This document shows, piece after piece, positions 241 to 58,219 of a DNA stretch of 64,000 nucleotides. The DNA comes from a virus, in IMG/VR virus record IMGVR_UViG_3300044617_002308, positions 7,268-71,267 of that record. One strand, given 5' to 3'. Under the pieces are notes generated by a model. It had not been told where the DNA came from, did not search any database, and saw nothing but the letters and a program-made list of their open reading frames with translations. Made by a program: the position numbers and the translations under genes. The number at the start of each line of letters is the position of its first letter. Position 1 is the stretch's first letter.

Positions 241-259
241 TTGTCTATTGTCTCGGCAA
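241..259 (-). promoter_or_regulatory. 19-bp box (minus-strand consensus YTGCCGARACRATHGACAA), upstream of the portal-like gene
   Basis: + strand ttgtctattgtctcggcaa; overlaps the giant-gene stop codon. Confidence 0.7.
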
Positions 260-3200
260 GGTCAAATTGGCTTGCGGTTGGTTGAACATGAGTTCCGGCG
301 TGAGCGTGGAGGGTTGCTGGCGCAGGGACTTGGGCTTCGGGAACGGTCGGATGTTGACGCCCGTGGCGATCTTGAAGAGCGAAAGGAAGGGATCGCGCAC
401 GGCCACATTGTCGGGATCGGGGTAGGTGATGTAGGTGCGCGTTTCGCCGGACGGGAGTTTTTCATCGTAAACCCGCACGCTCTCCGGGCCAGCGCCCATG
501 GCTTGCAACCGGGCTAGATCGCCTGCGATGTTGCGGGTGGTCTGGCCTGCGTCGGAAACCTTCGCGGGGTTTACGCCCATGCCGAAAAGAAGTTCGCGCA
601 GATCAATGGGCGCACCGCTGGAAGAAACCGGCGTGGCGACTTGCGCGGAGAGGTTTGCCAGCGCGGCGTCTTTCTCGGCGGTGGTGAGTTTTTCGTTCGC
701 GCGGATTTTCTTCGCCTCGCGGGCCATGTAGCCGGCGCGGTCGAAATTGAGCGTGAGGCGGGCCGGGGTGATGGGATCGCCGGCGACGGGGAGGTTTTTG
801 CGCAGGCCGGGGACTTTGGCCATAATGCTTTCCAGCGGCCCCATCGTGAAGTCGAGGCTCTTGTTGCTCGTCGTGCGGCGCACCACCGGATCGGTCATGT
901 TGTTGATGTATTCGGTGAGGGCGCTGGGGTTGATCGGCGAACTGAGCGCCTCGAAAAACGCCTCGCTGGCCAAATTCACCGGGCTCTTCTTTGCATCAAT
1001 GCTGCCCACTTTGGCGATGCCCACCATGCGGCTCAGGATGCCGAGCGCGGTGAGGTCGGAAATGTAGGCTCCGGCATCGCGCAGGAAACCGGGCATGTCG
1101 CCCCGCACGGCGCGGCCCATGAGAAGACCTTCCTTCATCCAGGTCATGTTTTGGTAATACATCCAGTAGTCGTCGCCGCGATGGTTCGTGAGATCGTCGT
1201 TGATATTCACGCCCGCCATGCGAAGAGCAGTAGCCACCATGCGGCCAAGTTGGGTTTTGCGCCCGAGCGCGGAGAGGTTCATGCGGCTGCTGGTATCCTG
1301 ATCGCGGTCCTTGGCCTTGCCTTCGGCGTCGAAGCGGGAGCCGATGATCGGGTCTTCCTCGTCGTCGCCAGAGAGTAGGGCCGCGCCACCGTAGGCGATG
1401 GCGGCGAGCGTGAGCATGTTGGCCAGTCCGCGCGCGCGCTCCTGCTTGGTGGAGGAAGGCGAGAAGGTTTCAATCGCTCCATCGAGGCCCATGCGCTTCA
1501 TAAAGCGCACAAAGTTGTATGGCCACTTGATGAACCACAGGCCGTGTTCCTTGAGGAATTTTTTTCCTTTCTCTTCGGGCAGGCTCGCGGAGGGGTCCAT
1601 CCACGCCGGCACATTCGCGTAGTCCATGAAGTAAAGCCGCGCGGCGTCCATCACCTCGCGGTGGATCGCGGTGTTTTCGCGCACCTGCTTTTGAATCCAG
1701 TTGCGCATCCACTCGGAGCGCCCGCTCTTCACCTTGGCTTCGTTGGCGGCCACCTCGGCGCGGGCGCGGTAGGCCGCATAGGCGCTCTGCTGCTTCACCG
1801 CCGCATCGCCGCCGGAGTAGTGCACGGCGTAGAGGATGCTCGCGGAGATGCCACCTTGTTTGAAGGCGTTCACCAGGCCTTGCGCGGGGCCGCGCAGGAT
1901 GCCGTTGCGTTTGATGTCATCCACCATGTTGCCGTAGTCGGTGCCCGCATCGAGGCTGGAAAGCGCGGTGGTGTTGTCGAACAACTCGCGCGGGATGAGA
2001 TCGCCGATGCGCGATTGATTGAGCGTGTTCGGCGCGCGGTCGGTAATGAGGCCGCGTAGGAGGAACAGAGCCTCCATCGTATTCACTGCCGCGCCCTTGG
2101 AGTCCAGCACCATCAGGTGGGTGATGCCTGCAAACATCCGGTTCATGGCCTGCGTGAGCGTGAGAATTTGGTTGCCGATCCAGTTGATGCCTACGGAACC
2201 GGCGGCAAGTTTTCCGAGCTTCGCGCCGCGCAGGAAGAAATTGAGCGTGCGCAGGAGAATGCCTTCGGTCTGCGCGCGGGCCATGGAGAGCATGAGTTCG
2301 CGGTAAACATTTTTGTGAACCATCTGCTCGATGCCGTTGAGCCGCGCGGCGTCGCCCACCAACTTCATGAGTTGCACCTGATCCTTCGGGTTGAGCCCCT
2401 TTGAGAGGTGCGGGTAGGCTTTTTTGTCGAGCAGGCGGGCGGCTTCCACGGCCTTCACGATGCTGCTGAAGACATCCTCCAGCGCCACATAGTCGCCGAT
2501 GTTCTCGGCAGGCACATCGTCGCGCAGCACGACGGCTTTTTCGATGATGCCCTCGCGCATGCGCATACGGATTTTCTCGCGGTGGGCCTCCATCGCACGG
2601 GTGCTGAACCCATCGACAAGGTTCTTCACATTGCCGGCCTCGCGGAGCGCGCCGGTCTTGAAGCGGCGGCCAGGGGATTTGTAGATGCCCAGCAGGCGGG
2701 CGATCGTGGCGATGATCGAGCGCTGCGCGGCGATGTCGGGCGTGTAGCCCTCCACGCGCGGCACCTCGGGAAGAAGATCGCCGAAGGCATCCTTCAAATC
2801 CTGCGGCCACTCGTTCATGAAGGAGAGAAGCGCCTCGCGGTTGAACTCCACGCTCATCGTGCTGCCAAGGCCCACGGTGTAGGCATCCTTCAAGTCCGGC
2901 GTGATCCAGCGGTCGAGGATCGGGAGCGCCTCGGGGAAGTTCTGCCAGAATTCCTCGTAGATCGCCTGCTGCATTTCCACGCTGATCGGCTCCAGAAGAA
3001 CAAAGGCTTTTTCATCGGGCAGGAAGTCGCCCAGGCGGTAGGTGCGGCCATCGTATTGGAACCACTCGCCGTCGCGGAGCCGGAGCTTGCGGGCCTCCAC
3101 TTGGGAGATCGTGCCGGATCGGCGCTCGAATTCACGCCACTCGAAGCCGCCATCCACGCCCGTGCGCTGGGGTTGGAGATAGCTGGCTGTCGGGAGGAGC

Positions 3201-6200
3201 AGGCGCGTGGCTTCTTTCAGGCGAGTGCGGTTTTTGCTCCAAAATGCGGGATCGCCGAAAGCCTTTTGAAGTTCGCGGCGCAGGCCGTCCACCACGGCAT
3301 TCACGCCGATCTGGGCAAGTGCCTCCTCTTGCTGCGCGGCTTGCAGAATATTTTTCACGCCGGGGGCGAGGGCGTCGGCCACATCCAAGCGGCCACGGAA
3401 AAGGTTTTGGTAGCCGCGCCAAAGTTCGTAAGGCATGGCCTCGCGGATTTCGCCGGCGACTTTGCGCACGCTGCCCGCGGGCTTCTCCTCCGCCGCGCGC
3501 AGGACATTGTTCCAGTTCTCGATCGAGTCCAGGCTCGCCTCGATGCGCTTCTCCATCGGAGGAAGCGCGGGGCGGCGTTTGGCCCCTAATACAGCCCCGG
3601 GCTGTCTCCCCTTGGGAGTTGCTGGAACCACTCCGGCAGTTCGGCCAGCGCCTCCTCGTCCTCCAGAAGGTCGTCCAGTTCCGTCCCGATCCCGTCCGTC
3701 CGCAGGTAGCTCTCCTGCGTCATTGGCTTTTTCCGATGTTCCAAGATTATTTTCGCCGCTCCTGGCAACCTTTGCCCAGTCCGGTCGGCCCACTCCTGAA
3801 CCATCCGCAATTGCTTCTGACGCAGTTCTTCCGCGTCGCCCTTGGAGGGTGTCGCGGTTGCTCCATTCGTCGGTGAGTCGGAATATGAGATCATGGGCTT
3901 CTTTGGTGGTGATAATGCCTTGTTCGTGCTTTTTCCAGATCGCTCGGACCTTGTTGACATTCGCTTTCTGGCTCTTGAACTTCGCTGGGAAAAGTAAACG
4001 GACAGACTCCCATGTGATACTCTGGACTTCACGCGGAAGCAAGTTGAATTCCTTGGCAACGATGCGGTAGGCTTCCGCAAAGGCGGGGTAGAGTCCGCTA
4101 ATGCCGAGGTTTGCGCTGCCAGCGGCTCCGCCTTGGCCGAAATTCTGGCTGACCTCCGGGCTGTTGCCGGAGAGGGCTTGCCACAGGATGGCGGCGATGG
4201 CGTGGGTATCCATGGTGACATGGCCGTCCGGGTTCGCGGGGTCCACAATGTTGTTGTAGAACGATCGCACCTTGTGCTGAACGCCGAGTTCGGCGCTGAT
4301 CGTCTGTATCTCCGCCTCGGCTGGAGCCGAAAGGATGTTGATCGCTTTTTCAATCGTGTTGTAGCTGCCCCATGCGATGGAGCGTTGCTCGCCTTTTTCT
4401 GTGAGCATCGGGTTGCCGAAGCGGCCATCGGGTGAGACGACGGGGAAGGAGGGTGAGTCGTAAACCTCGCTCCACATGCGGATGAAGCGGGCTTGGAATT
4501 CCAGCGGAAGGTCTTTGAGTTTTTTTCCTTTGAGTTCTTCAATATCCGCCTTGGCTTCCTCAAGTTTCTCCCGCGCCTTGGCGTTGTCCCAATTCTCCCA
4601 ATCCACGATATCGCCCGCGTCGTTGGTAACCGGCTTCGCGCCTTTTTCGTAGAGGATGTTTCCTTGGGCGTCGCGCTTGTAGTCGTCTAGCTTCTTGTCC
4701 CATTGCGGCTGGGGCTCGCCGCTGCGGCGGATGTATTGGGCCGCCATGGCATCGTCGAAGATGGTGTCCTGGTGGTTGCGCCAGACATTCATCATGCGCT
4801 CGGCCAGGGCCACATTCATGAACCAATCCTTCTGCGGGCTGAACACGGCCAGCACGGCGGCGGAGCGGTTGAGCGTGGTGCCGAAGCGGGTGGCGAAATC
4901 CTGCGCGATGATGTTTGCGCCATCATACCAAAGGCGGGCGATGTCGCGGAGGTCGGCGGGGAAAAGATCGATGAGGCGCTCCAGATTGTCCACGGCCATC
5001 TCGGTGAGGGCTTGGTAAACGCTTTCGGCCATCGAAGTCGGGAACCGGCGCTCGTTGGCGAGGATGGCCTTCACCTCGTTGTCGAAGGCTTTCTTGGCGA
5101 CATCGACCTCCGTCTTGGCTTTCTCGGCGGCGGTGCGGGCGGCGTTGATGCGTGAGACCAGCCCGCGCACCTTGCGGGAGTTCTCATCCGGCTTGGCTTC
5201 GATGGCGGCATCCACGGCGGCCATCTTCACCTTCGCCTTGCGCACGCCCTGCTGGCGGGCGAGTTCGACCTGGAGCGCCTCGCGGGCTTTCTTGTGCTCG
5301 TCGGTCTTAATCTCCAATCGGGCCTGCGCCCTCACAAGCGGAGCGCGCACCTTGCGGACAAGCGCGGCGGCCTCGGGAAGGCGGCCAGCCACCAGCGGGT
5401 AGTCGGCCAGGAGCATGGCGTTCTTGCGGAACAGCGCGGGGTCTTGGCGCATGGCGTCGAGGCCCACCAGCATCGAGGCGTCCGTGCCGGAGCCGTCTGG
5501 ATTTTTGCCGGTCGGGTTGCGTGTGCCAACCGCCGTGCCTGCGACCACTTTGCCTTTTGTCTCGGCAAGGATACGCGCGGGGCGCGATTTGGCGAAGAGC
5601 GCGCCCTGTTCAATCACAGGGGCTGCTGGCGCGGGATCAAGCAAGCCTTCGCGTTGCAACTCGTTGACAATTTCGCCCGAGATCGGTTGGTTGCCTTGCA
5701 CTTGCCGCGCTTGTTGTGCGATCTGCTGCGCTTCTTTTTGCTCCACGAACCGGCCTGTGGTGGTGACAAAGCCGAAGTTCTGCGTGGGCGGGAATTCTCC
5801 GCCATCCAAGTCATACTTCGTCTCCTCCATGAGTTCTGCGTGCGTTTTGGCGGGTGAGCTTAGAACAGTGCCGTCCTTGTCGATCACGGCGGTGGCGGCT
5901 ATGCGCTCGGGCATGGCTTGTGTAGCCGGGGCAGGCTGTGCAAACAAATCCCCCACATCTTTTGTGTTGATGGCTGGCGCTGTGCTGGCTTCAACACTCG
6001 CAATCTCTCGGCTGAAGTTTTCCAGAACCGCGCTTGGGTCGTCTTCTTGGAAGAGCGCATCGGTAATCGCTTGTTCTCGCGTCTTTCCAGCAGCCACGCC
6101 ATTGAGAATCTCGCTTCTTACTTTGCTGGCGTCTGCCGTGACCATGGTGTCCGGGGCGCTTTTTGCAACAACCGCGAGCAATGGGTTGATGTTGACATCA

Positions 6201-12200: not shown

Positions 12201-15200
12201 GCGTTGAATTGCCGGCTGCCTTGGTCGGCGTAGCGGATGCCGGGGATGCCTGCGGCGAGGAGGGCTTCGGAGGCTTTCTTTGAAGCGTCAACGCCATCGC
12301 GTGAAAACTCCGCATCGGGAAATGTGGCGCGAAGTGTGCTGTATAATGCCCCGCCAACCTGCTCCCCACTTTTCCCAAAAATTGCGTCCTGCCACAACCA
12401 ATTGCCGGAGATTGATTGCAATGCTGCCTGCACCTTTGGACTTTGGTCGGAGAGCGGCTTGTCCCAATCGAGCATGTCAGCATCATCCACATCGAGTTCG
12501 ACGGCGTAGAGGTTGCCGGGTTGAGTTGTTTCTCTGCCTACGCGCGGGATAACCGCATCATAAGCAGCGATGATTCTTTCTTTGTTCGCGTAGTTATCAT
12601 CGTATTTGGTTGCATTGTCGCGTTGCTGAATAAGCCACGCTTTTAGATCGCTGGTTCCATTTGCGGGAAATGCGCCGATGTCGTTAAATACCAACCGGAC
12701 ATTTTCATCTGAACTTGATTTGAGTTTTTTGGCCAGCGTTGGAGTGATCGTTTGCCCATCAAGTGTATTCTTCTTCCGTAAATCTCCAGCCAGCCTTCTG
12801 CGGTATTCCTCCGCAGCAGCCCGCGCCTCCGCAAAATAAAGCCCCCAGCCATAAGCCTGCGCGCCCTCGCCGGTTCCGATCTTGTCGAGGCGGAAGCGGT
12901 CCACCTTGTGCGGCGTGCCGTGGTGGGCTTTTTTGAGGAACAGGATGCCGGGTTCGGTGGTAACCTCGGCGTTGGCCAAACGCACGCGGGGCTTTGCGGC
13001 TACGGCGCGTTCGCCCATGCCGTCATCGAAGTCCGTGGTGGTGCCATACATCGGGCGGTTTTCGGTGAACCGCGCATCCACCAAGTCGAGCACGTCGCTG
13101 GGCGTGAAGGTGTCGAACCCATGCCCGCGCAGGCTTTGGGCGAGCCGATCCAAGTCGGGCGCGTTTTTGCGGAAGATGCGGGAAACAAAAATGCCCTTGC
13201 CGCCGTAGGCTCCCTTGCCCATGGCTTTGGCGCTTTCAAAGAGCGTGGTGAGTTCGCCGCGGTGGCTTTCGGCGCTTTCAGAAGTGGGCGAGGGCAGTCC
13301 GCCCGCCATTTGGATGGCGTCCAAAAGCTCGAAGCCGCTGGCGCTGGCGTCTTCCATGGCTTTGTCGAGGTTGCCCGCCTCGGCTCGCAGATCGTCGAGA
13401 TACTCGCGCTGCATGGCCTCCAACTCGGCCTGCTCAGCGTCGGTTTTCATTTGCTCGGGCGTCTTGCCCATGCGCACGCGCAGGGAGCCATCCGGGCGCG
13501 GCGTGGCTTTGAGCGCGCCGAGTTGGATCATTTGCGCCCAGGAGAGCGGAGCGGAGTCGCGGTTGGTGAACCCGGCGGGGCTGGCGATGCCGGCCTTCAA
13601 TGTCAAGTCGGCGGGGGCGATGTCGCGGGTGCCATCCTGCAAGACGTCATGCACGGCGTCGATGAAGGCGGCCTGCGAGCGCAGGAGCGGGCCTTCCGGC
13701 AAGCGGCTCATGTTCATGAGGAGTGTGCCGGGGTGGAGATTCGCCATGCCGAGGCGCTTGGCCACAGCCACAGCCTGCGTGACAAGGCGGTCGAGACTCT
13801 CGGGCGTGGACTCGCCGCGCTCGCGGGCCTCGCGGAAGTCGCGCATCTGGCTCACAAAAAGCTGGTAGAATTTCGGGACGAGCTTGGCGTCTTTGTCGCT
13901 CAACTCCGGCATGCCCTCGTCCTCGGCGGCTGGATCGGCCTCCTGCTCCATCTCGGCGGCGCGGGCTTCCAGTTCGGCCTCCTTCGCGTCGAATTCGGCG
14001 GCAACGCGATTGGCCTCGGTGCGGGCCTGCGCATCGTCCGTGATCGGAATCTGCGCGGGCGTGCCTCCCTGCGGGCCGCGAACGAGGTAAAGCCGGCCAC
14101 TCTTGGTGACGCGCGGGTGGAGCGGGATGTCGGACGCGGGTTTTTCCACCGGGCCGAGTTGGGCATCGATCTCCTCCACACGCTCATTGCGGGTGAGGCG
14201 CGGGGCGATGCCCGCCTTGGCCATGAGGTCGTAGCCTTTCTGGTTGATCACGCGCTGCCCGCGGTAGATGTCCACCATGCCGCGCTGGCGCAGATCGGCG
14301 ACATCGGCCTCGCTGGCGGTGTTGCCCGCCACGGCGGCGAGTTTTTCCAAAACCGGAGCCTGCTTGGCGGCGCGCTCGGCGGCGTAGGCATCGAGCGCTT
14401 CCTGCGTGAAGAGGTAGTTGTTGCCGCGCTTCTCGGCGGGAATCACGGCGGCTTTCACTAGGCGCAGGAGTTCCTTCGGCGTGACGCCAAGGGTTTTCGC
14501 GGCTTGGGCCATTTTGATCGTGGGCGCGGCGGCTGGCTCTGTAGGCTCCGGCGGCAATGGCGGCGGGGTCGCCTCGTCTGTCACGACTTCCTGCTTCGGT
14601 GTCACGACTTCTTCCGGCGGGAGCGGGGGCGGTGTGGCTTCGACGCTCTGCACCGGCTGCACGGGCAAAGTGGTAGCAGGAGCGGGAGTCGAACCCGCGT
14701 CTCCAGGATATGAGCCTGGCAACTTAACCTCTCGTCCATCCTGCGGTGTGGAAAATTCTTGGGAAACTGGTGCAACGGCTGTCGGCGCGGCCACACGCTC
14801 GAAGAGATCGCGCACGGCTTGGGGCTTTTTGTTAAATTCTTGGATGCCTTTTTTGAACGCCGCCTTCACCTGATCAAGGTTCGTGACGAGGATCGCGGTA
14901 TCGGCTAGGCCTGAGAGGATCAGGAACGGCTGGGCCGTCATCACGCCGGAGACGAGTTTGAGCCCGATGCCCACGGTGGCGAAGATCACCTGTGGCTTGC
15001 TGAGTTTTCCGCCTTGGGCAGCGCGGTAGAGCTTGTAGGTGCCAAGGAACGAGAGTCCGCCGCCGAAAACCTCGCCGATGTTGGTCGAGAGCCAGTCGGT
15101 GGCCACGCGGTCGCTCACTGCGCCGCTCTGCACCAAAAGCTCCACGCCGGGGAGCGGCAGGCCGCTGCGGGTGAGGCTGTCTTTGAAAAGTTGGATGATG

Positions 15201-18200
15201 TAGCTCGGGACTTCGCTCCAGCCGAACTCGGCGGCCACATTGTCCACATTGGTGAAAAAGTCGTGTCCATACCACACGCGGTGCAGTCCGGGTTCGCTCG
15301 CGGCTTGGATGATCGCGTTACCGGCGGGGTTGGTGTCCGCGTTCATGGCGTCGATCCATTTCCCGATTTCGTTTCCGGGGTTGAGCTTGTCGTAGAGCGC
15401 GGTGCCGTAGTTCAGCGTCTCGCCGTAGGCCGTGTATTGGCTCGGGATGCCGGTATCGACGATCTTGTAGCCGAAGGAGCCAGCAGCGGAAGTGAGGGAG
15501 GTATTGAGGGCTTCTTGCGTCCACTTCTGCGCCCCGCGAGCGGGCTTGGGAACGAAGGCTTGGTTGCGCGGTGCGGCCTTCTCGGGCAGGCGGGTGAGCG
15601 GCGCGGCGGGAGTGTCGATTGTCTCGGCAGGCTCAACAGCAGAAACCGGCGGCGCGTTGGCCTGCTCCACGGGAGCCTCCATGGGCGAAGCAGCCTCGGC
15701 GGCGGGAGTCGCGGGCTGCGGGGTGATGCCAAGCATGGCGTCGAGTTTGGCCACTTCGGCATCGATCTTGGCGGCGGTTTGCTCAAACTCGGCGCGGGTG
15801 TCGGGATCAAGTTGGCCGAGAAGCTCCTCGCGCAGCCAGCGGGCGATGTCTTGGAGCGCTTCCTTGATGCGCTGGGCGAAGGAAGGATCGCTTTCCGCAA
15901 GTGAAGCCACCTCGGAGGCCATGTCCACCTGCTCGGTGGTGCGGCCCTCGGTGACGGCGTTCAAATACATGCGCCAGAACTCGGCTCCGGCTTGGAACTC
16001 ATCCACTTCGACTTGCGTCCAGTCGCCGCCCACGGCTTCGAGTTCGGCGGTGAAGTAGGTTTCCACCACACGCTGCTTGGCGGTGTCGGGCAGGGTTTGC
16101 CAGTCTTGGATCACCTCGGCGCGCTTGCGCACGTTCATGGTGGCGACATGGATCACCTCCTCGCGCAGGGCGGCTTTGAGTTTTTCTTGGCGGGCTTCGG
16201 GGGCGACTCCGCCCAAGTATTCCACCAGCGCGGTTTCATCGATGTAAACCTTGCCTTGATGGGCAAACATGGGCGATGGGCTCGGCGTGTAGCGGGCGCG
16301 CTCTTGCTTAGGAAGCTCGGCGTAGGTTTTGGCATCCACCACCCGGTTGCCGCGCGTGAAAAAGCGTGGCGAACGAACCACCAGAGGTGCGCTGGAAACC
16401 CACGGCGCGGCGGTTTGAAGCATGAGAAGCGCGGTGCCGCGGTTGACGGGTTGGGTGAAGACATCGGCGGTTTCCGTCTCGGGAAGCGGCGGGGGCGTTG
16501 TGTCTGCGGTTGGATCGAGGGTAGTGGTGACGCTCTCGGAAGTCGTGTCGGTAGCGCTGCCTGCCGGGGTGGTGGCCGTGTAACCTTCTTGGCCAAACTC
16601 GCCGGGTTGCACGGCATCAGGAGTCTGCGGGTTGAGCGCGTAGGCGGCCTTGTCTTCGAGCGTCTGGAAAAACTGCGTGTTCTCCGGCGTGATGGTGAAG
16701 ATCGGAGCCTCGGGGCTGGTTTGCTGCCAAGTGCCATCGGGTTGCTTCTCAAAAGTTCCGGTGACTTGCGCGCCGTCCGGGGTTTGGAAGTTTTGCGTGA
16801 CGGGCGGCGTGACAGAGATCGGAGCGGGGATTTGCGGGCCGGTGGTATTGGTTGGGGTGCTTGGCGTGACTGGCGCGGGCACTGGAGTCTCGCCAACAGG
16901 AGTCTGCGGCGTGGCAGGAGCAGGCGTTGTTGGCTGCACCGGAACAGTCGGCGTGGCGGGCGCGCTGGGGGCAGGAGCGGAAGGCGTGGTGCTGGCGGCT
17001 GGCGGTTGCGTGGAGACGCTTGGCGTGGTCGGTGTGGGCGCGGAGGGCTGAACGGGAGTTGTCGCGCTGGCGGGTTTCTTGTCGGCGATCAAAACAGGAC
17101 GGCCATTCACCATGCGAAACACGCCGCCATACTTGGCGCGGAGTTCGGCGTCGCGCTCGGCTTGCGTTTTGCGAAGCACGGGGGCTTTGGCCGTCTCGGG
17201 CGCGGCTTGTTTGATCTCCTCGCGGAATTCATCGGTGAGCACGATGTCGTCGCCGTAGGTGTAGGCGGCGGGCTTGCCGCTCGCGGTCTGGTGGCCGAGG
17301 AGCGTGGACTCCTGCGAGACGCTCAAGGGCACGCCGTTGGCGGCGCGCAGGGCGGCATCCACCACCTCGCGCTGGCCGGGGGGCAGGGCGTTGATCTCGC
17401 GGGCGGTGTTGATCGACATCTCGCTCACGGCGGCGGTGTCGAGCAGGTTGGCTTGGAGGGAGTTCTCGATGCGGGATTTTTCCGAGAGGAGTTGTTGGCG
17501 CTGCGGGTTCGGCGTGAACGGGATGTTGCCCGGGCGCACTTGCGGATCGGCGGGAAGGGCGTTGAGACGGGCATTGACATCGGCCAATTGCACCATCAAG
17601 TCCTTGCGCTGGGTGTTGAGCGTGGCAACGAACTGCGGGCTTTGGTAGTTCTGGGCCTGGCGGGCGACTTCCACCGTGAGTTGGGTGCCGGTGTTGTTGT
17701 GTTTGTTGTAGTTGGCAACGAACTTGGTGAGCGCCTTGGTTTGCGCCCGCTCGTTTAGCATTTGCTTGGTGGCGTCGTAGCCCAGGCTGACGGCTCCGCC
17801 GCCAATGGCATGAACTGGCCCCATGCCGACGCCGAGGATCGCTCCATGGATGCCTTGGTTGATGGCATCTCCGAATGATGCTCCGGCTTCGCCAAACGAG
17901 GCCACGGCTTCTTGGAAAAACTCGCCGCCGCCGGAGACGAGGGACTGCTTGCCGAAGTCCACGCTGGAGTTCCAGATTTGCTGCCCTCGGGTGAGGGAGA
18001 TGCCGGGTGTGGTTTCGATCTTGCCAAGGGTGCGCCAACTATCGGCGATGTTGTCGCCGATGCGTGAAAAGGAAGACACGGCATTGGCGGCCTTATTGAG
18101 GTTCGAGCCCACGCGGGTGGCCGCGCCCACGGCTTTCACGCCGTAAAGTGCGCCGCCTGAAACAATGCCAAGGAGGTTGACTCCCAGTTCGATGGCTTGC

Positions 18201-22927: not shown

Positions 22928-22946
22928 CTGTCAAATGTCTCGGCAG
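22928..22946 (-). promoter_or_regulatory. 19-bp box
   Basis: + strand ctgtcaaatgtctcggcag, 27 nt before the ATG at 22900. Confidence 0.65.
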
Positions 22947-25521: not shown

Positions 25522-25540
25522 TTGCCAAGTGTTTCGGCAA
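25522..25540 (-). promoter_or_regulatory. 19-bp box
   Basis: + strand ttgccaagtgtttcggcaa, 14 nt before ATG 25507. Confidence 0.6.
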
Positions 25541-27326: not shown

Positions 27327-27344
27327 GAGGAGTGTGGTGGAAGT

Positions 27345-28864: not shown

Positions 28865-28883
28865 TTGTCTATCGTCTCGGCAA
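28865..28883 (-). promoter_or_regulatory. 19-bp box
   Basis: + strand ttgtctatcgtctcggcaa, 8 nt before ATG 28856; TTGACA lies immediately upstream on the minus strand. Confidence 0.7.
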
Positions 28884-29759: not shown

Positions 29760-30007
29760 GGCGTGGGTTGGAAAAGGCGGCGGATGCGGTCGATCCAGTT
29801 TTCTGATGGCGGGGGCGGAAGGCGGAATTGGCGTTTGGGTTTGTATCGGCCACGGCGGGTGTCTTTGTGCAACCACTGATCCACGCTGGTTTCGGCGGTG
29901 TAGAACGCCTGTCGGCATTTCAGGCAGCGGCGGCGGCGGGCCACACCGTGCAGGAACCGGCGGGTATCGAGCACCTTTGTGCTGGCTTGGCAATTCGGGC
30001 AGGTCAT
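29756..30007 (-). CDS. NrdR-like zinc-ribbon protein
   Basis: MTCPNC...TKVLDTR...RRRRCLKCRQAFYTAE matches the NrdR N-terminal Zn ribbon; no ATP-cone. Confidence 0.75.
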   Translation of the reverse strand: MTCPNCQASTKVLDTRRFLHGVARRRRCLKCRQAFYTAETSVDQWLHKDTRRGRYKPKRQFRLPPPPSENWIDRIRRLFQPTP

Positions 30008-30025
30008 TGTCAATCGTCTCGGCAG
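30007..30025 (-). promoter_or_regulatory. 19-bp box abutting a start codon
   Basis: + strand ttgtcaatcgtctcggcag; its last base is the A of ATG 30007. Confidence 0.65.
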
Positions 30026-30234
30026 GTTGTTTTTTTCCGTTTCTTGGCGGTCTTGCGCTGGCGCGGGGCGTCGTCATACCACTCGGCAAAGTGGCCGAAG
30101 TCGCGTGGTTGTGTCACTTCGGCATTCTTTCCGCACACATCGCAGCGCCCGTAGTGCCAGCAGGAGACTTCCTTCTGGCGGGTGCCGTGTTCAAGACCGC
30201 AGGGCTGACAGGTCCAGTTCGGGTAGGGTTTCAC
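30010..30234 (-). CDS. Small CxxC...CxxC zinc-finger protein
   Basis: YPNWTCQPCG...WHYGRCDVCG...VTQPRDFGHF; paralog at 32290..32499. Confidence 0.7.
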   Translation of the reverse strand: MKPYPNWTCQPCGLEHGTRQKEVSCWHYGRCDVCGKNAEVTQPRDFGHFAEWYDDAPRQRKTAKKRKKTTCRDD

Positions 30235-30533
30235 GGGTTGAAAACACGGCGCAGTTTTTTCAACACGCGGCGGGTGATTCGGCGCTTTCCGGTTTCAAGG
30301 TCGCTCCAGTGAGGGCCGGAAATGCCGATGCGCTCGGCGGCGGCGCGCATCGAGAGGTTTTCGGTTTCGCGGATGGCATGGAGCACTTGCCCCATGGGGA
30401 CGCGCAGGCGCTCGGCGGTCTTTTGCGCGGCACTGATCGTGTTGAGGGCGACCTCGTATTCGAGGAAGGTTTCCGAGGCGGAGGATGAGGTGGTTCTTGC
30501 GCGGAACGCGGTGAGTATGTTGCGAAGGATCAT
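30231..30533 (-). CDS. XRE-family HTH protein
   Basis: IRETENLSMRAAAERIGISGPHWSDLETGKR. Confidence 0.8.
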   Translation of the reverse strand: MILRNILTAFRARTTSSSASETFLEYEVALNTISAAQKTAERLRVPMGQVLHAIRETENLSMRAAAERIGISGPHWSDLETGKRRITRRVLKKLRRVFNP

Positions 30534-34166: not shown

Positions 34167-34185
34167 TTGTCAAATGTTTTGGCAA
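34167..34185 (-). promoter_or_regulatory. 19-bp box
   Basis: + strand ttgtcaaatgttttggcaa. Confidence 0.55.
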
Positions 34186-36187: not shown

Positions 36188-36777
36188 TTCGTGGGTTGTT
36201 TTTTGGAGTGTAAACTTTGTCGATTGTCTCGGCAATTTTTTTCTTGACGCCTTTTCGGAATCGTCGTTAAAATGGGCTCACTGGTGTGAGCGGAGCAGGA
36301 AGTTTGTGTGGTGTTGCTCTTTTGTTTTTTGGGTTTCGCGTCGATGTGCCTTCGGATGAAACCCGGCACCAATCCTGACTCTTCGGGCGATTCGACAAAC
36401 ACGGGCAGATGTCCGATTCGGATGGTTTCGTTGAGATATTCCACGCAGTCGGCGAATGTGTGGCAGCGTTTCCAGCAATGCTTTTCGACGCCGGCTTTTT
36501 TCGCTTCCTCGTTGTCGATCGTCTCGAAAATTTCGCGCGGGTGCTGGGTGGTTGTCTCGTCGAATTTCGCGCGCTCCAGGTGGAGTGTCACGGTGGTTTT
36601 GGTTCCGTGCACGGTTCGCGTGAAATACACGGCGTGGTGGCTTTTGAGCGCATCGGCGGCGGCGGCGAAAAGCCACTGGCTTTCGTTCGCGCGGTAGGGA
36701 CCGGCGAAGGGTTCGAGGTTCGGGGGGATGTTCTTTTTGTCGAGGATTCGGAGGTGGAGCAGCGGGTTGAGTGTCAT
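36184..36777 (-). CDS. Hypothetical protein
   Basis: ATG 36777 with ATGA overlap. Confidence 0.55.
   Translation of the reverse strand: MTLNPLLHLRILDKKNIPPNLEPFAGPYRANESQWLFAAAADALKSHHAVYFTRTVHGTKTTVTLHLERAKFDETTTQHPREIFETIDNEEAKKAGVEKHCWKRCHTFADCVEYLNETIRIGHLPVFVESPEESGLVPGFIRRHIDAKPKKQKSNTTQTSCSAHTSEPILTTIPKRRQEKNCRDNRQSLHSKKQPTK
36217..36235 (-). promoter_or_regulatory. 19-bp box upstream of terS
   Basis: + strand ttgtcgattgtctcggcaa, identical to the copy upstream of the MCP gene. Confidence 0.75.
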
Positions 36778-38640: not shown

Positions 38641-38656
38641 AATTTTGGGGTTTCAT
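37322..38656 (-). CDS. C5-cytosine DNA methyltransferase (catalytic, alpha-type frame)
   Basis: Motifs I (LCAGYGG), IV (GYPCQPFS), VI (FENVEG), VIII (HQRKRVFI) and X (RLLGNGV). Confidence 0.9.
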   Translation of the reverse strand: MKPQNYVDNPKTITHIGLCAGYGGIEIGLHRVIRNLRTVALCEIEAFACANLVSKMEAGLMDCAPIWTDLKSFPWAEFRDRVDILTGGYPCQPFSAAGKRLGTEDPRHLWPFIADGIRLLRPRLCYFENVEGHISLGLREVIGELESIGYQTAWGIFSASEVGAPHQRKRVFILAHDQRQRVEELGWQIAGASQFDSAWNDGADAGCGELGDTLRPDGRITDQTEQTGTNGRRQAGDTSCHANIWPSRPGEPQHGWEPPRVVVDAKSQRANRRLDLCVEERRPRPALQPKSDNTGREDGPMGNAPQRQDHGREPRDMGSEAGQGRCGDHAADGAGEVLGHPNSPRPQERTGQRGAGIQGTHADGGEDAERQTQPSLGGDAPSGPARLDEPGLPALGDSELAEIYEWMERCTNRTDELRLLGNGVCVTTGELAYRTLFSELCRND

Positions 38657-38661: not shown

Positions 38662-38680
38662 TTGCCAATCGTCTCGGCAA
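38662..38680 (-). promoter_or_regulatory. 19-bp box upstream of the MTase
   Basis: + strand ttgccaatcgtctcggcaa, 5 nt before ATG 38656. Confidence 0.7.
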
Positions 38681-39176: not shown

Positions 39177-40441
39177 GCTTCGGGGGCCTCCTCGAAGCGG
39201 CTGATTTCGCCGCGCATGGTGACCGGGATCGTGACTCCGCGCTGACCGCGGCGGTTTTTGTCCACGACGATGATCGGGGAGCCGTCGTGCCAGATGTTCA
39301 CCACGGCGTCGGCATGGTGGCCGATCGCGCGGCTTTCGCGCAGGCGGCCTTCCTCGTTGAGTTGGCTGGCCGTCAAAACGACGCTGCGGGTTTTCAGCGC
39401 CGTGAGTTTCAAGCGGCGGGCGAGTTCGCTGATCGCTTGTTCCCGGCTGTCGGCCTTCGGCATGGTGACGATTTGCAGGTAGTCCACGACGATCATGTCG
39501 GCCTTGCCGGTTAAGGCGAGCCGGTGGGCCTCGGCGTCGATCTCGCCCACCTCGGAGAGTGTGTCGTGGATCGTGAGGGGCATCCGCATCAGGCGGCCCA
39601 GGGCGTTGGAAAGTTCGTGGCCGGTCGCGATGTTGCGCTGGTCTGTGGCTTGAAGGATGTCCCGCGCGCCTTCCACTCGCTTGCCGATCAGGTTCGCGGC
39701 CATGCGTCGCAGGATCGCCTTCGCGGGCATTTCCAAGGAAAAGATCGCCACGTTTTTGTTGTCCTCCAAGGCTTTCAACGCGGCTTGGTAGAGCAGAATG
39801 CTCTTGCCGCCGCCGGTGTCGGCCCCGACGACGAGCATTTCGCCGCGCATCATTCCGCCGTGAAATGCCTTGTCGAGCGCCGGGATGCCGGTGCTGAAAG
39901 TTTCCAGCGGGGTTTTCTGCTCCAGGTCGTCGATGAGTTCGGCCAAGTGCTCCTTGATCGTTTTGGCTTCGGCCACGTTGTCTTGGGCGGCTGTGGCGAT
40001 TGTCTCGGCAAGGGTGGAGAGTTCCGTGCGCATCCGGCGGATGTCGGGTTCGGCCTCCTCCCATGCGGCCAGCGCGTCGCGGTAGCCTTTGGCCTTGGCT
40101 AGTTGCCGGCGGTAGTCCGCGGCCACGGACTGCGCGATCGTGCCGGGACCATGGAGCGCTGTGCGGAAAATCTCCATCACGCCCTCGGTGCCGCCGCAGA
40201 AGTCCAGCTTGCCGGTCGTCTCAAGCTCGGAAATGGCCTGTATCGCACTGCAAGTGCCGCTCCGCTGGTGGACCCTTTCTATGGCCCCGAAAAGCGTCCT
40301 GTGGGCATCCAGCGCGAAAAGCGAGGCATCCCACGGAAGGGAGGAAAAGATATCGGGATCGGTGACGATGAGCCCCAGGGCCGCGGCCTCGGCGGTTTTG
40401 GCGATGGGGACGGATTTTGTGGTGTCGGGTTGGGTTTTCAC
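39173..40441 (-). CDS. dnaB: Replicative DnaB-like helicase
   Basis: GADTGGGKS, FSLEM, IVVDYLQ, SQLN, LRESRAIGHHAD, KNRRG; GTG start overlapping the rep stop. Confidence 0.93.
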   Translation of the reverse strand: MKTQPDTTKSVPIAKTAEAAALGLIVTDPDIFSSLPWDASLFALDAHRTLFGAIERVHQRSGTCSAIQAISELETTGKLDFCGGTEGVMEIFRTALHGPGTIAQSVAADYRRQLAKAKGYRDALAAWEEAEPDIRRMRTELSTLAETIATAAQDNVAEAKTIKEHLAELIDDLEQKTPLETFSTGIPALDKAFHGGMMRGEMLVVGADTGGGKSILLYQAALKALEDNKNVAIFSLEMPAKAILRRMAANLIGKRVEGARDILQATDQRNIATGHELSNALGRLMRMPLTIHDTLSEVGEIDAEAHRLALTGKADMIVVDYLQIVTMPKADSREQAISELARRLKLTALKTRSVVLTASQLNEEGRLRESRAIGHHADAVVNIWHDGSPIIVVDKNRRGQRGVTIPVTMRGEISRFEEAPEA

Positions 40442-47018: not shown

Positions 47019-47033
47019 ATTCTTCGATAGGAG

Positions 47034-47068
47034 CCCCGCCGGTTTGCCCCGGCGGGGTTTTTGTTTTT
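47034..47068 (+). terminator. Intrinsic terminator-like hairpin, U-tract on the + (antisense) strand
   Basis: GC-rich inverted repeat ccccgccgg...ccggcgggg followed by tttttgttttt. Confidence 0.55.
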
Positions 47069-47081: not shown

Positions 47082-47258
47082 TTATTCGCCTTGTCGATCG
47101 TCTCGGCAGGGCGAAGTTTCGCGGCTCTTGCGGCCTTCGCAGTAGTCGCGGAATTGTTCGATGATGTAGTTTTGGCCAGCCTCGTAGCCGAGCTTCCAGC
47201 AGGCCCACATGGAGCCAAAGCCCAGAACGGTGAGGGCGATCGCGAATTCGGCGCTCAC
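47082..47258 (-). CDS. Small membrane protein
   Basis: GTG 47258; hydrophobic N-terminus AEFAIALTVLGFGSMWACW. Confidence 0.5.
   Translation of the reverse strand: MSAEFAIALTVLGFGSMWACWKLGYEAGQNYIIEQFRDYCEGRKSRETSPCRDDRQGE
47091..47109 (-). promoter_or_regulatory. 19-bp box upstream of recT
   Basis: + strand ttgtcgatcgtctcggcag. Confidence 0.7.
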
Positions 47259-47876: not shown

Positions 47877-48034
47877 TGGCGCAGTTTCGCGTCGGGTGCA
47901 TTGCACCTTTTTGCCAAAAAAAATCGGAGCAGGGCGCTGGGGTTGCTACCAGCTGCGGCAGCGAGTTTTTCAAGTTGCCTTTTCAGGCGACGATCCACGG
48001 CGAAGCTAGCGACGACGGTTGCCTGTTTTTCCAT
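47873..48034 (-). CDS. Ribbon-helix-helix protein
   Basis: VVASFAVDRRLKRQLEKLAAAAGSNPSALLRFFL. Confidence 0.7.
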   Translation of the reverse strand: MEKQATVVASFAVDRRLKRQLEKLAAAAGSNPSALLRFFLAKRCNAPDAKLRQ

Positions 48035-48257
48035 GTGTTGTTTTTTTCCTTTTTTGTTGCTGTTCGATTTCATCGGCGATCGTTCTATAATCTTCCGCCG
48101 TGAGTTCAACATGTTGGAGTTCTTCCATCAAAATTCGGTTCACCAAGCCGGTTGGAGTGATATTTTGAACTTTGGCCTCTTTTTCAATTTGGTGTTTCAA
48201 GGCCCGTTCCAACCGCACCACCAGTTGGGTTTTGTTAATGTCGGGGCTGTTAGGCAT
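48006..48257 (-). CDS. Ribbon-helix-helix (Arc-like) regulator, candidate repressor
   Basis: KTQLVVRLERALKHQIEKEAKVQNITPTGLVNRILMEEL; preceded by a promoter containing an operator. Confidence 0.7.
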   Translation of the reverse strand: MPNSPDINKTQLVVRLERALKHQIEKEAKVQNITPTGLVNRILMEELQHVELTAEDYRTIADEIEQQQKRKKTTHGKTGNRRR

Positions 48258-48263: not shown

Positions 48264-48291
48264 AGAATACAAGGTGCATTGCACCCGTCAA
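48264..48291 (-). promoter_or_regulatory. Sigma70-like promoter with the palindrome GGTGCAATGCACC in its spacer; probably leaderless
   Basis: TTGACG (48291-48286), 16 nt, TATTCT (48269-48264), then ATG 6 nt later. The same palindrome recurs at 47895-47907. Confidence 0.65.
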
Positions 48292-49206: not shown

Positions 49207-49380
49207 TGTTGCCAGTCCAAAATAAAAACATTGATAAAACAAATACTTATGTAATGATAAAAGCACCCGTGGGTTCGAATCCCACCCTCTCCGCCATGCC
49301 TCTTCCCTCTAGTGTTGATGCACCAGAAACAATAAAAACACATAAAAAAATAGGTGACTGTTGCCAGTGATGTTGCCAGT
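49207..49380 (+). repeat. Integrase arm-type sites TGTTGCCAGT x3
   Basis: Exact copies at 49207-49216, 49359-49368 and 49371-49380 flank the core; aataaaaaca is also repeated at 49221 and 49331. Confidence 0.75.
49258..49296 (+). other. attP core: 3' portion of a tRNA-Ser gene
   Basis: ...aaaagcacccGTGGGTTCGAATCCCACCCTCTCCGCCA gives the T-arm, acceptor 3' strand, G discriminator and CCA. No 5' half lies upstream. About 90 nt from the integrase start. Confidence 0.85.
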
Positions 49381-49388: not shown

Positions 49389-50549
49389 ATGGCTAGCGTA
49401 AGAAAAAAGCGGGCTTCGGCGTATTGGTTTGGATGCTTTGTGATGCCGGACGGGAGGCGGGTGCAACGCTCAACCAAGTCAAAAGACAAAATGGAGGCTC
49501 TTCAAATTGCCCTGACTTGGGAGAAGGCGGCGCGCAAACGGGTGACGGTGGAGCAGTCAAAAAAAGTTGTCGCGAGCATTGTGAAGCTCGTCCACGGCGA
49601 TGTGGTTTCCGAGGAGACGGTGAGAACCTATTTCCTGCGTTGGGTGCAGAGGAAGACGATCGAGGTGGGCAAGAACACGGCGGATCGCTACCAGAACTGC
49701 CTGGATAGTTTTTCGGAATATCTCGGAACCAAAGCGGACGGGCCGCTGGCCGAGGTGCAGGCGACACAGGTGGCGCAGTGGCGGGACGGCTTGGCCAAGA
49801 AGCTGGCGGCGGGAACCGTGAATGTTTATTTGAAAGTGGTGCGCTCGGCGTTCCGCGATGCCCATGCCGAGGGCGCAATCACCGAGTCGCCGGTGGGCGC
49901 GATCAAACTGCTCAAGCGTTCGGTGGCGGAGAAAAGCGCGGCGGCTTCGTCGCGGCGGGCGTTCACTGCGGACGAGTTGAAAAAGACGGCCGCCATCATT
50001 CCCGAGGACTCCGAGTGGCGCGGGATGTTCCTTGCAGGGCTCTACACGGGCCAAAGGCTCTCGGATATTGCCACCATGCAGAAAGGCGAGTTGAAAAGCG
50101 GTTGGTGGCGTTTCCGCGTGAAAAAAACCGGACGCTCGGCTGCGGTGCCGCTTGCGAAGCCGCTTGCAGAGTGGCTCGCCAAACACTCCAAAAAAACGAT
50201 CGGGCCAAATGTTTTTCCTGCGGCGGTGAAAACCTTGGAGCGTTCCAAAGGAACTCCAGGAACATTATCAAACCAGTTTCGCCGGTATTTGGAACTGGCC
50301 GGCGTGGTGGAATATCGCATGCACCGCTCGAAAGGCGTTGGCCGCGACGGCAAGCGCTCCACGGGCGGGCTCTCTTTCCATTGCCTGCGCCACACCACCA
50401 ACTCGCTCCTGAAGGCCGCTGGCGTGCAGGAAAGCGTGGCGATGGACTTCGTAGGCCATGAGAGCGAGCAGATCTCCCGCCTCTACACGCACGTTCCCGA
50501 GGAGTCGCTGCTGGCTGCGGCGAGGAAGCTGGAGGATGTGCTGGGGTGA
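49389..50549 (+). CDS. int: Tyrosine integrase
   Basis: YTGQRLSD, KKTG, FHCLRHT, VGH and RLYTH supply the R-K-H-R-H-Y set; N-terminal arm-binding domain. Confidence 0.95.
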   Translation: MASVRKKRASAYWFGCFVMPDGRRVQRSTKSKDKMEALQIALTWEKAARKRVTVEQSKKVVASIVKLVHGDVVSEETVRTYFLRWVQRKTIEVGKNTADRYQNCLDSFSEYLGTKADGPLAEVQATQVAQWRDGLAKKLAAGTVNVYLKVVRSAFRDAHAEGAITESPVGAIKLLKRSVAEKSAAASSRRAFTADELKKTAAIIPEDSEWRGMFLAGLYTGQRLSDIATMQKGELKSGWWRFRVKKTGRSAAVPLAKPLAEWLAKHSKKTIGPNVFPAAVKTLERSKGTPGTLSNQFRRYLELAGVVEYRMHRSKGVGRDGKRSTGGLSFHCLRHTTNSLLKAAGVQESVAMDFVGHESEQISRLYTHVPEESLLAAARKLEDVLG

Positions 50550-50613
50550 ATGCCCCATCTGTTTTGCCGAAACAATTGTTGTCAATATTTCCGGCTTGCG
50601 CTTTTGTTGCTGC

Positions 50614-50994
50614 ATGAAGAATTCAAAATCCGATTCGGACTACAACCGGGAATGGCGTCTGAGAAATGCGGAATACGATCGTGAGCGCAAACGCCAGTGG
50701 TATTTGGACAACCGGGCGAAGCTGGTTGAAAAGGCCAAGGCCAGACTCTCCAAAGTGCGCCAGCAGGACGGGCCAAAGTATCGGGTGGATACAACCAGAA
50801 GCTATGTGATCGCGGACGGGCGCGTGTATTTCAATTCCAAGCTCGGCTTCTCGGAGGAGGAAATTTTGCAGATCGCGCTCAAAATGCGCCAAGCCGCGCG
50901 GGATGAGGCGAGGCGCTTGATTAGCGAGTCTTCTGTCGGTCGTATCCCAGCACGGCGTCGCGCAAAACAAAAGGCCGGTTCGCCGACAACGTGA
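50614..50994 (+). CDS. Basic hypothetical protein
   Basis: ATG 50614; YNREWRLRN.EYDRERKRQWY..N repeats resemble HNH N-termini but there is no nuclease motif; its 3' end overlaps the nozzle gene convergently. Confidence 0.5.
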   Translation: MKNSKSDSDYNREWRLRNAEYDRERKRQWYLDNRAKLVEKAKARLSKVRQQDGPKYRVDTTRSYVIADGRVYFNSKLGFSEEEILQIALKMRQAARDEARRLISESSVGRIPARRRAKQKAGSPTT

Positions 50995-56864: not shown

Positions 56865-56883
56865 TGTGGTTGTGTGGTTGTGT

Positions 56884-56902
56884 TTGTCGATTGTCTCGGC
56901 AA
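56884..56902 (-). promoter_or_regulatory. 19-bp box upstream of the MCP gene
   Basis: + strand ttgtcgattgtctcggcaa, 19 nt before ATG 56864. Confidence 0.75.
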
Positions 56903-58171: not shown

Positions 58172-58200
58172 CAACGCCCTCTTTACGGGCGTCAAGCAAA

Positions 58201-58219
58201 TTGTCTAATGTTTCGGCAG
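58201..58219 (-). promoter_or_regulatory. 19-bp box upstream of the scaffold gene
   Basis: + strand ttgtctaatgtttcggcag. Confidence 0.65.

Follow-up and report, generated by a model that had tools for sequence, protein, structure and literature searches.

An oriented 19-bp box in the genome of an uncultivated phage

The window analyzed in this work is a 64,000-nucleotide (nt) stretch of viral DNA, representing bases 7268 to 71267 of the 71,267-base IMG/VR record IMGVR_UViG_3300044617_002308, which is rated complete by CheckV. It comes from a phage (G000) with a GC content of 59 to 60%, and the subject of this study is a 19-bp quasi-palindromic sequence, hereafter the box, that recurs along its genome in one orientation. 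Nearly all genes of the window are carried by the minus strand. A giant open reading frame (ORF) at 245-21334 on that strand encodes a 7029-amino-acid (aa) polyvalent protein as one ORF and lies directly before an SU10-type portal gene starting at 224. The other identified genes include terS and those for a terminase-like 584-aa protein, RecT, a RecE-like exonuclease, a DnaB-like helicase, a replication initiator, the capsid protein, and an endolysin, and a tyrosine integrase gene is located at 49389-50549 on the plus strand. Gene maps of all genomes in this study are codon-usage heuristic calls, made without a curated caller.

A sequence-only reading of this DNA had listed 13 coordinates for a 19-mer repeated before late and middle genes, and each of them was found to hold a copy on the plus strand, that is, antisense to the minus-strand genes. 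Read on the gene strand, the box is YTGCCGARACRWTHGACAA, 19 bp long and sharply bounded. The degenerate 19-mer as originally written has 6 matches, versus 0 in 100 shuffles and 0.00 expected. When up to 3 mismatches to the best copy were allowed, 11 matches were obtained on one strand only, against 0.03 expected, and no shuffle reached as high a number. A weight matrix was built from 12 copies taken by coordinate, with the proviso that such matrices are trained on the sites that they score. Scanning the whole record with it yielded 17 sites of at least 20 bits, whereas shuffled sequences gave none, and all 17 are on the gene (minus) strand, bearing out the single orientation reported earlier. 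They comprise the 13 sites listed before, three intragenic copies (5550, 36512, and 39993), and one that falls outside the window (record position 5017). With the iterated matrix, 19 sites of at least 16 bits were obtained in the record, the new ones being two intragenic copies at 40478 (19.4 bits) and 60338 (22.8 bits). At a threshold of 10 bits, shuffles themselves give 1 to 16 matches, such that the strong class alone is meaningful. Over five genomes, 78 of 79 sites have the gene-strand orientation. The copies in the window, with reference to the relatives G001 and G002 described below, are as follows.

241..259, minus strand: box, 31.2 bits; overlaps the giant-ORF stop and ends 16 nt before the portal ATG (224); junction boxed in all relatives
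5550..5568, minus strand: box inside the giant ORF, 23.6 bits; frame ..GCC GAG ACA..; also in G002
15612..15630, minus strand: box inside the giant ORF, 25.0 bits; the orthologous G001 position is also boxed
22928..22946, minus strand: box, 26.5 bits; 27 nt before the ATG of a 517-aa gene
25522..25540, minus strand: box, 26.1 bits; 14 nt before the ATG of a 667-aa gene
28865..28883, minus strand: box, 30.2 bits; 8 nt before the ATG of a 503-aa gene
30007..30025, minus strand: box, 30.1 bits; its last base is the A of the ATG of an NrdR-like 83-aa gene; overlaps the stop of an upstream 74-aa ORF
34167..34185, minus strand: box, 27.9 bits; 31 nt before a 75-aa gene; AAAACT as a -10-like hexamer 16 nt past the TTGACA half
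36217..36235, minus strand: box, 30.7 bits; 29 nt before the terS ATG
36512..36530, minus strand: weaker box, intragenic, 20.9 bits
37319..37337, minus strand: box, 26.8 bits; 3 nt before a 93-aa gene; overlaps the methyltransferase stop; junction boxed in G001 and G002
38662..38680, minus strand: box, 28.5 bits; 5 nt before the methyltransferase ATG
39993..40011, minus strand: box inside the DnaB-like helicase gene, 21.3 bits; the G002 DnaB-like gene also has a copy
47091..47109, minus strand: box, 28.7 bits; first after the early region, 72 nt before the recT ATG, without promoter geometry
50564..50582, plus strand: partial box in the opposite orientation, 14.7 bits; 5' 15 nt intact, 3' end altered; 31 nt before the ATG of a 126-aa gene
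56884..56902, minus strand: box, 30.7 bits; 19 nt before the ATG of the major capsid protein gene; conserved in all relatives
58201..58219, minus strand: box, 28.5 bits; 29 nt before the scaffold ATG, as TAGACA-16-TAAAGA-8-ATG

The box is a quasi-palindrome of the form TTGYCRA-N5-TYGRCAA, and a typical copy contains about 28 bits. Positions 1 to 12, which read TTGCCGAGACAA in the window phage, account for 16.7 to 18.3 bits and are equally conserved in every class of copies. Positions 13 to 18 are TTGACA-like, resembling the -35 hexamer of sigma-70 promoters, and also complete the quasi-palindrome. In logos drawn from -30 to +60, information is confined to the 19 bp in both groups of phages defined below, and nothing beyond is conserved over all copies. 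An RNA hairpin or processing site was considered and rejected: the full set of seven sense-strand pairs can form in just 4 of the 49 copies of group 1 and 10 of the 38 of group 2, stem pairs 4-16 and 6-14 are often mismatched, and the stem is not conserved by compensatory change. Literature searches for stoperators, oriented intergenic phage promoter motifs, and phiC31 conserved inverted repeats (CIRs) turned up no description of the box.

Related phages carry group-specific versions of the box

When IMG/VR was scanned with a degenerate pattern, 45 stretches were retrieved, 38 of them on single-match contigs (about the chance number by a rough estimate), and two contigs of 68 to 69 kb had 3 and 4 matches. 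These contigs, G001 (49% GC) and G002 (58% GC), are syntenic with G000. Conservation in relatives, on which the sequence-only reading had made its case depend, was observed in both, with 12 sites of at least 16 bits in G001 and 21 in G002, all on the gene strand. At up to 3 mismatches, there are 5 matches in G001 and 14 in G002, versus 0 for the reversed control.

A more distant subgroup was reached via capsid relatives and consists of G003 (51.9 kb), G004 (49.3 kb), and G007 (23.3 kb), whose capsid proteins are 72 to 74% identical to that of the window. G007 is nearly identical to G003, and the counts given here include this near-duplicate as well as orthologous sites and are non-independent. 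These phages (group 2) have an altered box, TWGTCRAAAGRATTGACAN, which is on the gene strand in 20 of 22, 9 of 9, and 8 of 8 sites, respectively. It contains an A-tract at positions 6 to 12, followed at positions 13 to 18 by T (100%), T (100%), G (95%), A (79%), C (100%), and A (87%). Another phage, G005 (65 kb, capsid protein 37% identical), showed one match and no comparable repeat.

Group 1 (G000, G001, and G002) and group 2 each have their own version of the box at the same gene junctions. The junctions boxed in both groups are the giant-ORF end before the portal gene, the one after the 84-aa gene behind the portal gene, and those before the scaffold gene, the capsid gene, and the gene preceding the giant ORF. 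Within group 1, the form is unchanged across phages of 49% and 60% GC. All sites of a genome thus change together, which is the mark of a cis element co-evolving with its cognate factor, here a putative sequence-specific protein that is most probably phage-encoded. The thought that host genomes might share the box found no support among 401 Verrucomicrobiota genomes, which gave 2 single matches versus 2 for the control, i.e., the box is not above control there.

A 29-bp unit, CCCCACACATTTGAGGGGTTTTCTAAATC, is repeated about four times in tandem across both contig ends of G001 (loci L076/L079), where it immediately follows a box copy and could represent an iteron array or an origin.

The box is anchored to the start of the following gene

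Placement was surveyed for 86 sites of at least 20 bits in six genomes, 65 at junctions and 21 inside called genes. An ATG follows within 100 nt in 64 of the junction copies, and in 55 of these the box ends -2 to 33 nt ahead of it; the distances cluster at 0 to 10, 15 to 19, and 27 to 33 nt, and the longer ones mostly concern recT (61 to 72 nt). The sequence-only reading had placed most copies of the window 0 to 31 nt before a start codon and the recT copy 72 nt away; this was borne out, the distances being -1 to 31 nt in 11 of 12 window junction copies and 72 nt for recT. The copy at 15612 does not belong with the pre-gene copies among which it had been listed, as it lies inside the 7029-aa ORF. 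Distances to the upstream gene vary widely: 10 copies overlap its stop (TAG at positions 13 to 15 or TGA at positions 14 to 16), and others are 60 to more than 200 nt away. In wide gaps, by a conservative measure, the downstream start is the nearer one in 13 of 14 cases (P = 0.002; some of them orthologous). Therefore, the box belongs to the following gene.

Some of these positions are fixed across the phages. Portal copies, at 1 to 16 nt from the ATG, are conserved in every genome, and so are the capsid copies, which are 17 to 19 nt from the ATG in four of five genomes and 29 nt in G002. The ATG is no farther than 24 nt away in 31 of 58 junction copies, which leaves no room for a -10 element and a start site. 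The recT copy stands between the box-free early/lysogeny region and recT. Between it and the recT ATG lies a GC hairpin (window 47026-47065) that is kept in G001 and G002 with compensatory changes; a T-run follows the hairpin on the plus strand, and an A-run precedes it on the gene strand. Read on the plus strand, it is a terminator-like site that would act on antisense transcripts.

Intragenic copies are always read in one frame (..GCC GAG ACA AT..), the only one that is invariably free of stops. Within the giant ORFs, they mostly occupy non-orthologous positions between genomes; thus, they arise repeatedly and do not reflect a conserved peptide. Shine-Dalgarno (SD)-like sequences were scored in 5 of 48 box-preceded genes versus 74 of 303 (P = 0.04), a difference too weak to rely on; the box itself makes up part of the scored stretch. 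The gene starts seen here indicate that these phages and their host use leaderless, SD-poor starts.

A subset of copies has promoter geometry

The sequence-only reading had argued from the short, variable spacing that the box is not a plain sigma-70 promoter. This is consistent with a self-contained 19-bp unit and with more than half of the junction copies lying -2 to 24 nt from the ATG. Its assignment of the box to the operators, stoperators, or activator sites likewise stays the best available, but the 27- to 33-nt class appears to be promoter-associated, via the -35 half of the box and a -10-like hexamer 16 nt on. Specifically, nAnnnT hexamers peak exactly 16 nt past position 18, occurring there in 13 of 58 junction copies versus 4.5% expected; the ATG itself accounts for 3 of the 13, and 7 of the remainder are in the 27- to 32-nt class. 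With spacers of 16 to 18 nt, they are found in 20 of 58 junction copies versus 12% at random, and in 9 of 18 copies of the 25- to 35-nt class. The -10-like hexamer of the 27- to 33-nt class is followed by the ATG 6 to 10 nt on. At the scaffold junction, all genomes have the arrangement T(T/A)GACA-16-(TAAAGA, ATTAAA, AAAGGT, AAAAGT, or CAAAGT)-7 to 10-ATG. The TTGACA match of positions 13 to 18 in junction copies averages 5.1 to 5.6 of 6, and a perfect TTGACA is present in 12 of 18 copies of the 25- to 35-nt class versus 5 of 20 intragenic copies.

A divergent gene pair in G003, encoding the scaffold and a glycosyltransferase-like protein, shares a perfectly palindromic box midway between the two starts: the ATG is 28 nt away and the GTG 27 nt away, and either side has a -10-like hexamer (AAAAGT-7-ATG and TATCAC-6-GTG). 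The 359-aa gene on the opposite strand of G003 (loci L094; reverse-complement 26664-27743) looks by eye like a family 9 glycosyltransferase gene.

Other promoter assignments were rejected. The left half of the box as a -35 element for the 15- to 19-nt class is not accompanied by any nAnnnT enrichment at offsets 3 to 6, and the GG/GC dinucleotides of sigma-54 promoters and the -35 TAAA of sigma-28 promoters are absent from the logos, as compared by eye with the consensus sequences.

The box-free early region has a promoter of its own, TTGACG-16-TATTCT at 48264..48291 on the minus strand, in which 6 nt separate the -10 hexamer from the ATG of a ribbon-helix-helix (RHH) gene (48006-48257; Arc-like, a weak match). 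As predicted from its hexamers and spacing, it is a sigma-70-type promoter with a leaderless start, and the early promoter of G002 has the same design (TTGACC-16-TATCTT-6-ATG). The scaffold junction shares this geometry. Its spacer holds a separate element, the 13-bp perfect palindrome GGTGCAATGCACC (= GGTGCAWTGCACC, GGTGCATTGCACC) at 48273-48285. A second copy is present before the next gene at 47895-47907, and the system is conserved in G002. We consider this palindrome to be a putative local operator system distinct from the box.

These data suggest that the box combines a constant 12-nt core with a -35-like half and that a subset of copies are leaderless or near-leaderless promoters. By the same geometry, the portal, capsid, recT, and intragenic copies and those 0 to 10 nt before small genes should be unable to act as promoters for the adjacent gene. 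Because such non-promoter copies are conserved, a box-bound protein would need to have a function of its own at those places.

Candidate box-binding proteins

Three of the proteins proposed earlier as binders fared poorly. The XRE protein (30231-30533), the NrdR-like protein, and one of the RHH proteins have no homologue in G001, a phage with the same box, and are therefore poor candidates; in addition, the RHH gene promoter has its own separate palindrome. The giant protein contains HTH_17, ART-PolyVal, RadC, LPD5, LPD1, PRTase-like, C5 methylase, and DUF7178 domains, and giant ORFs of 5832 to 8159 aa are found in the equivalent place, directly before the portal gene, in the relatives. Its HTH_17 domain was rejected as the binder, the domain being present in the group 1 giants only. 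The VRR-NUC nuclease common to all genomes was rejected as a site-specific nickase, since its family is structure-specific. Searches of the ORFs scanned against Pfam, PHROGs, and PDB sequences, which could miss divergent forms, showed no RNA polymerase or sigma family. Nor did the unannotated thirds of the giant protein yield a polymerase or sigma factor when compared with PDB sequences, and no conserved DxDGD motif was found. The ORFs scanned also gave no NusG/RfaH-like (NGN, KOW), Q-like, or N-like match.

A lead came from the opposite strand. The sequence-only reading had reported a partial copy in the reverse orientation at 50564, before a plus-strand gene. This copy is real, albeit weak at 14.7 bits, and it lies 31 nt before the ATG (50614) of a conserved 126-aa plus-strand gene. 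The gene (50614..50994) sits beside the integrase gene and encodes a basic protein; with a length of 98 to 126 aa, it is conserved in G000, G001, G002, G003, and G007 at 52 to 67% identity. In group 1 it is on the opposite strand, preceded by a variant box in its own orientation 31 nt (G000) or 30 nt (G002) before the ATG and by a weaker one in G001; in G003 and G007, a full box is present 29 nt before the ATG of the homologue. Public data contain 18 homologues, all of them without a name, and the longer N-termini called in 3 of the 18 translate the same variant box. We regard the 126-aa protein as a candidate box-binding regulator, which is a lead and not a finding. Other small proteins common to all box-bearing genomes are those of a 70-aa gene (28886-29098) and of the 84-aa gene, which is located just outside the window. 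By eye, it gives the impression of an AP2-like beta-hairpin plus helix. An 85-aa early protein for which Pfam returned nothing looked, again by eye, AlpA-like.

Putative integration region, possible replication signals, and hints to the host

Next to the integrase gene, about 100 nt upstream, a stretch resembling a tRNA 3' end (T-arm plus acceptor, by eye) was noticed at about 49263-49292 on the plus strand, which is a probable core of the phage attachment site (attP). Given the integrase and the tRNA-like attP region, the phage is taken as temperate. A 30- to 33-nt piece of this stretch is identical in many Verrucomicrobiota genomes and is not host-diagnostic. One Verrucomicrobia metagenome-assembled genome encodes a capsid homologue with 32% identity, a hint that the host belongs to the Verrucomicrobiota.

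Three further observations concern the genome itself. The integrase segment is inverted in G000 relative to the otherwise collinear G002 (G0rc 13468-14794 aligns to G002 58114-56793). ARAGORN called a tRNA-Met (anticodon CAT) inside the giant ORF at 14671-14745 on the minus, coding strand, which would be either a false positive or an embedded tRNA-like stretch. A 9-mer, TGTGGATAA on the gene strand, which we take to resemble the DnaA-box consensus, is present at about 38630-38645, just within the methyltransferase gene start and right after a box copy.

Discussion

A 19-bp box exists along this phage genome in one orientation, is placed at the starts of genes, co-evolves among related phages by changing in step at shared junctions, and has the geometry of a promoter in a subset of its copies. 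We tentatively read it as an operator for a phage regulator that overlies the -35 element at some promoters and acts as a stoperator-like block elsewhere, an explanation that we consider quite possible though short of probable. A phage regulator co-evolving with the box would bind the 19-bp site. At promoter copies, i.e., those of the 27- to 33-nt class such as the scaffold copy, the bound regulator would sit on the -35 element, and at the other copies (portal, capsid, recT, and the intragenic ones of the giant and helicase genes), the same protein would act on passing RNA polymerase. The regulator would be a repressor, shutting the box promoters and blocking read-through elsewhere, such that the one-directional lytic transcription unit of about 60 kb would be silent in the lysogen. 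We infer the binding of a protein, the sign of its action, the roadblock, and the identity of the protein from the arrangement of the sites. Repression is favored because it alone would give every copy a role, because a protein lying over a consensus -35 element would compete with sigma, and because the first copy stands where read-through from the early/lysogeny region would enter the lytic genes. It is also favored because the layout matches that described for L5-type repressor sites (PMC9283540 and PMC6550527).

Several points weigh against this reading. The early promoter has a different palindrome and no box, and the main immunity operator may be a separate system; in L5, the early lytic promoter carries the stoperator sequence too, whereas the box is not seen there in this phage and overlaps the -35 element of putative later promoters. 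Among regulators, Pfam and PHROGs scans of the called ORFs gave an XRE helix-turn-helix protein, the Arc-like RHH protein (weak), and the NrdR-like zinc ribbon only, and no gp71-type repressor. The 126-aa protein matched no Pfam family at E values up to 1, its structural model has a predicted local distance difference test score (pLDDT) of 67, and Foldseek found no match at an E value below 1. If positions 13 to 18 are the -35 element, the core is centered near -41.5, the textbook position of a class II activator, and the -10-like hexamers are weak, with 2 to 3 of 6 bases matching TATAAT, which would also suit activator-dependent promoters. The palindromic copy of G003 would control the glycosyltransferase-like gene as well, and if that is a lysogenic-conversion gene, it should stay on. 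Finally, orthologous sites and the G003/G007 near-duplicates make the counts non-independent, and the gene calls are heuristic.

That core position leads directly to the thought that the box serves middle and late promoters as the site of a phage activator or sigma-appropriation factor, with the other copies as relics or decoys; we hold this to be rather unlikely. Such a factor would fit a core directly upstream of the -35 hexamer, weak -10-like hexamers, anchoring to gene starts, and a box found before delayed-early and late genes but not in the immediate-early region with its ordinary promoter. However, no function would then fall to most copies (those at junctions no more than 24 nt from the ATG, 31 of 58, and 20 intragenic ones), even though the portal and capsid copies persist in all genomes and intragenic copies newly arise. 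Moreover, a consensus -35 element usually needs no class II activator, and the early genes common to G000/G002 and G001 come down to a small membrane-like 58-aa ORF alone. It is quite unlikely that the box is a self-contained phage promoter, with transcription starting at or just past its 3' end to give leaders of 0 to 33 nt, served by a divergent sigma factor of the phage or by a hidden RNA polymerase residing, for instance, in the N-terminal 2,200 residues of the giant protein. About 20 oriented copies of a 19-bp, roughly 28-bit unit are what T7-type phages have, the distance to the ATG is never less than -2 and rarely more than 33 nt, positions 8 to 13 fit nAnnAT, SD-like sequences are rare in box-preceded genes, and a leaderless design is used at the early promoter. 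Yet the ORFs scanned contain neither a recognizable polymerase or sigma family nor a conserved DxDGD, the quasi-palindrome points to a dimeric DNA-binding protein, the -10-like signal at 16 nt and the 27- to 33-nt peak are explained by ordinary sigma-70 geometry, the intragenic copies are left unexplained, and the lower bound of -2 is a trivial consequence of the box sequence. That same geometry, together with the TTGACA right half and the A-tract at positions 6 to 12 in group 2, could speak for plain host promoters with an optimized -35 and an UP-like element and no phage regulator. This is very unlikely, in that the 19-bp conservation goes far beyond host-type promoters, the group-specific versions persist at 49 to 60% GC, more than half of the copies cannot be promoters, and the early promoter lacks a box.

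The strict orientation of the box, its recurrence every 1.5 to 16 kb in 21-kb ORFs with turnover of positions, its place just before SD-less starts, and the conserved hairpin following the recT copy would be expected of an ops- or nut-like elongation-control site, read on the non-template strand or the nascent RNA, at which a phage factor is loaded or re-loaded on polymerase against termination, maybe with coupling to ribosomes on SD-less genes. This is highly improbable: no NusG/RfaH-like, Q-like, or N-like protein was detected in the ORFs scanned, conservation of an RNA hairpin is lacking (7 of 7 pairs in 4 of 49 copies of group 1), and neither the -35 half nor the palindrome would be accounted for. 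Known signals of this type are shorter and number one or two per operon. A signal at the level of DNA, i.e., for strand-specific nicks, lagging-strand priming, or recombination hot spots at module boundaries, would account for one-strand copies in a genome that may be replicated or packaged one way, and repeated 19-mers could serve recombination of the RecT type, the phage having a RecT. It is nonetheless highly improbable, in view of the anchoring to downstream start codons, the palindromic copy equidistant from both starts of a divergent gene pair, the opposite-strand partial copy before an opposite-strand gene, and the sole nuclease common to all genomes being of the structure-specific VRR-NUC type.

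A bolder proposal, unlikely in our estimate, is that the box is the full signal of an unrecognized phage transcription device, such as a divergent sigma-like or polymerase-loading factor, perhaps delivered with the giant protein or encoded near it. If true, the device would start or re-arm transcription at every junction and within the 21-kb gene and deliver RNA straight to ribosomes at leaderless or SD-less starts, and it would amount to a genome-wide code of expression based on one motif, in a temperate phage whose host is uncultivated.

The operator/stoperator reading invites comparison with known systems. In PMC9283540 and PMC6550527, Cluster A mycobacteriophages (the L5 gp71, Bxb1, and TipsytheTRex repressors) are described as having more than 20 dispersed sites that are oriented with transcription and located in promoters and short intergenic spaces, with diverged versions in related phages. 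Those sites are 13 to 14 bp long without dyad symmetry and are bound by a monomer with two DNA-binding domains. The box system is alike in having 17 to 19 copies in the record (12 in G001 and 21 in G002), oriented, at junctions, and in group-specific versions. It differs in that the box is 19 bp with a dyad, including one perfect palindrome, its 3' half is a -35 hexamer, and no homologue of the gp71 repressor family was found in the ORFs called here. As judged from sequence, the box system is not a member of the L5 family.

In phages P1 (C1 operators) and phiC31 (CIRs), one repressor acts on many near-identical intergenic sites of about 17 bp scattered over the genome. In this they resemble the box system. 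Their sites are tied to single promoters or terminators and are not known to show strict co-orientation inside genes. Promoters of T7-type single-subunit polymerases come as about 17 to 20 strictly oriented copies of 19 to 23 bp before genes, in lineage-specific versions. Unlike such sets, the box is quasi-palindromic and also intragenic, it belongs to a temperate phage, and no polymerase gene was detected in the ORFs scanned. An ordinary leaderless sigma-70 promoter would share the TTGACA-like hexamer, the 16-nt spacer, the -10-like hexamer, and the ATG 6 to 10 nt on that mark the 27- to 33-nt class. The box differs from it by 12 more conserved bases upstream of the -35 element, and most copies lack both a -10 element and room for a start site.

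Genome-wide oriented control of a temperate phage through a single site has so far been best documented in one group of mycobacteriophages. The phages described here form an unrelated lineage, with uncultivated genomes of 50 to 70 kb, SU10-like portals, and polyvalent proteins of 5,800 to 8,200 aa. They would follow the same logic with another site architecture, namely, a 19-bp dyad whose 3' half is a -35 element, the version of which shifts in step at all junctions. If this is true, phage genomes read in one direction would repeatedly have arrived at silencing or activation by way of many identical sites, and the lineage would offer a natural pair of cognate site and factor variants.

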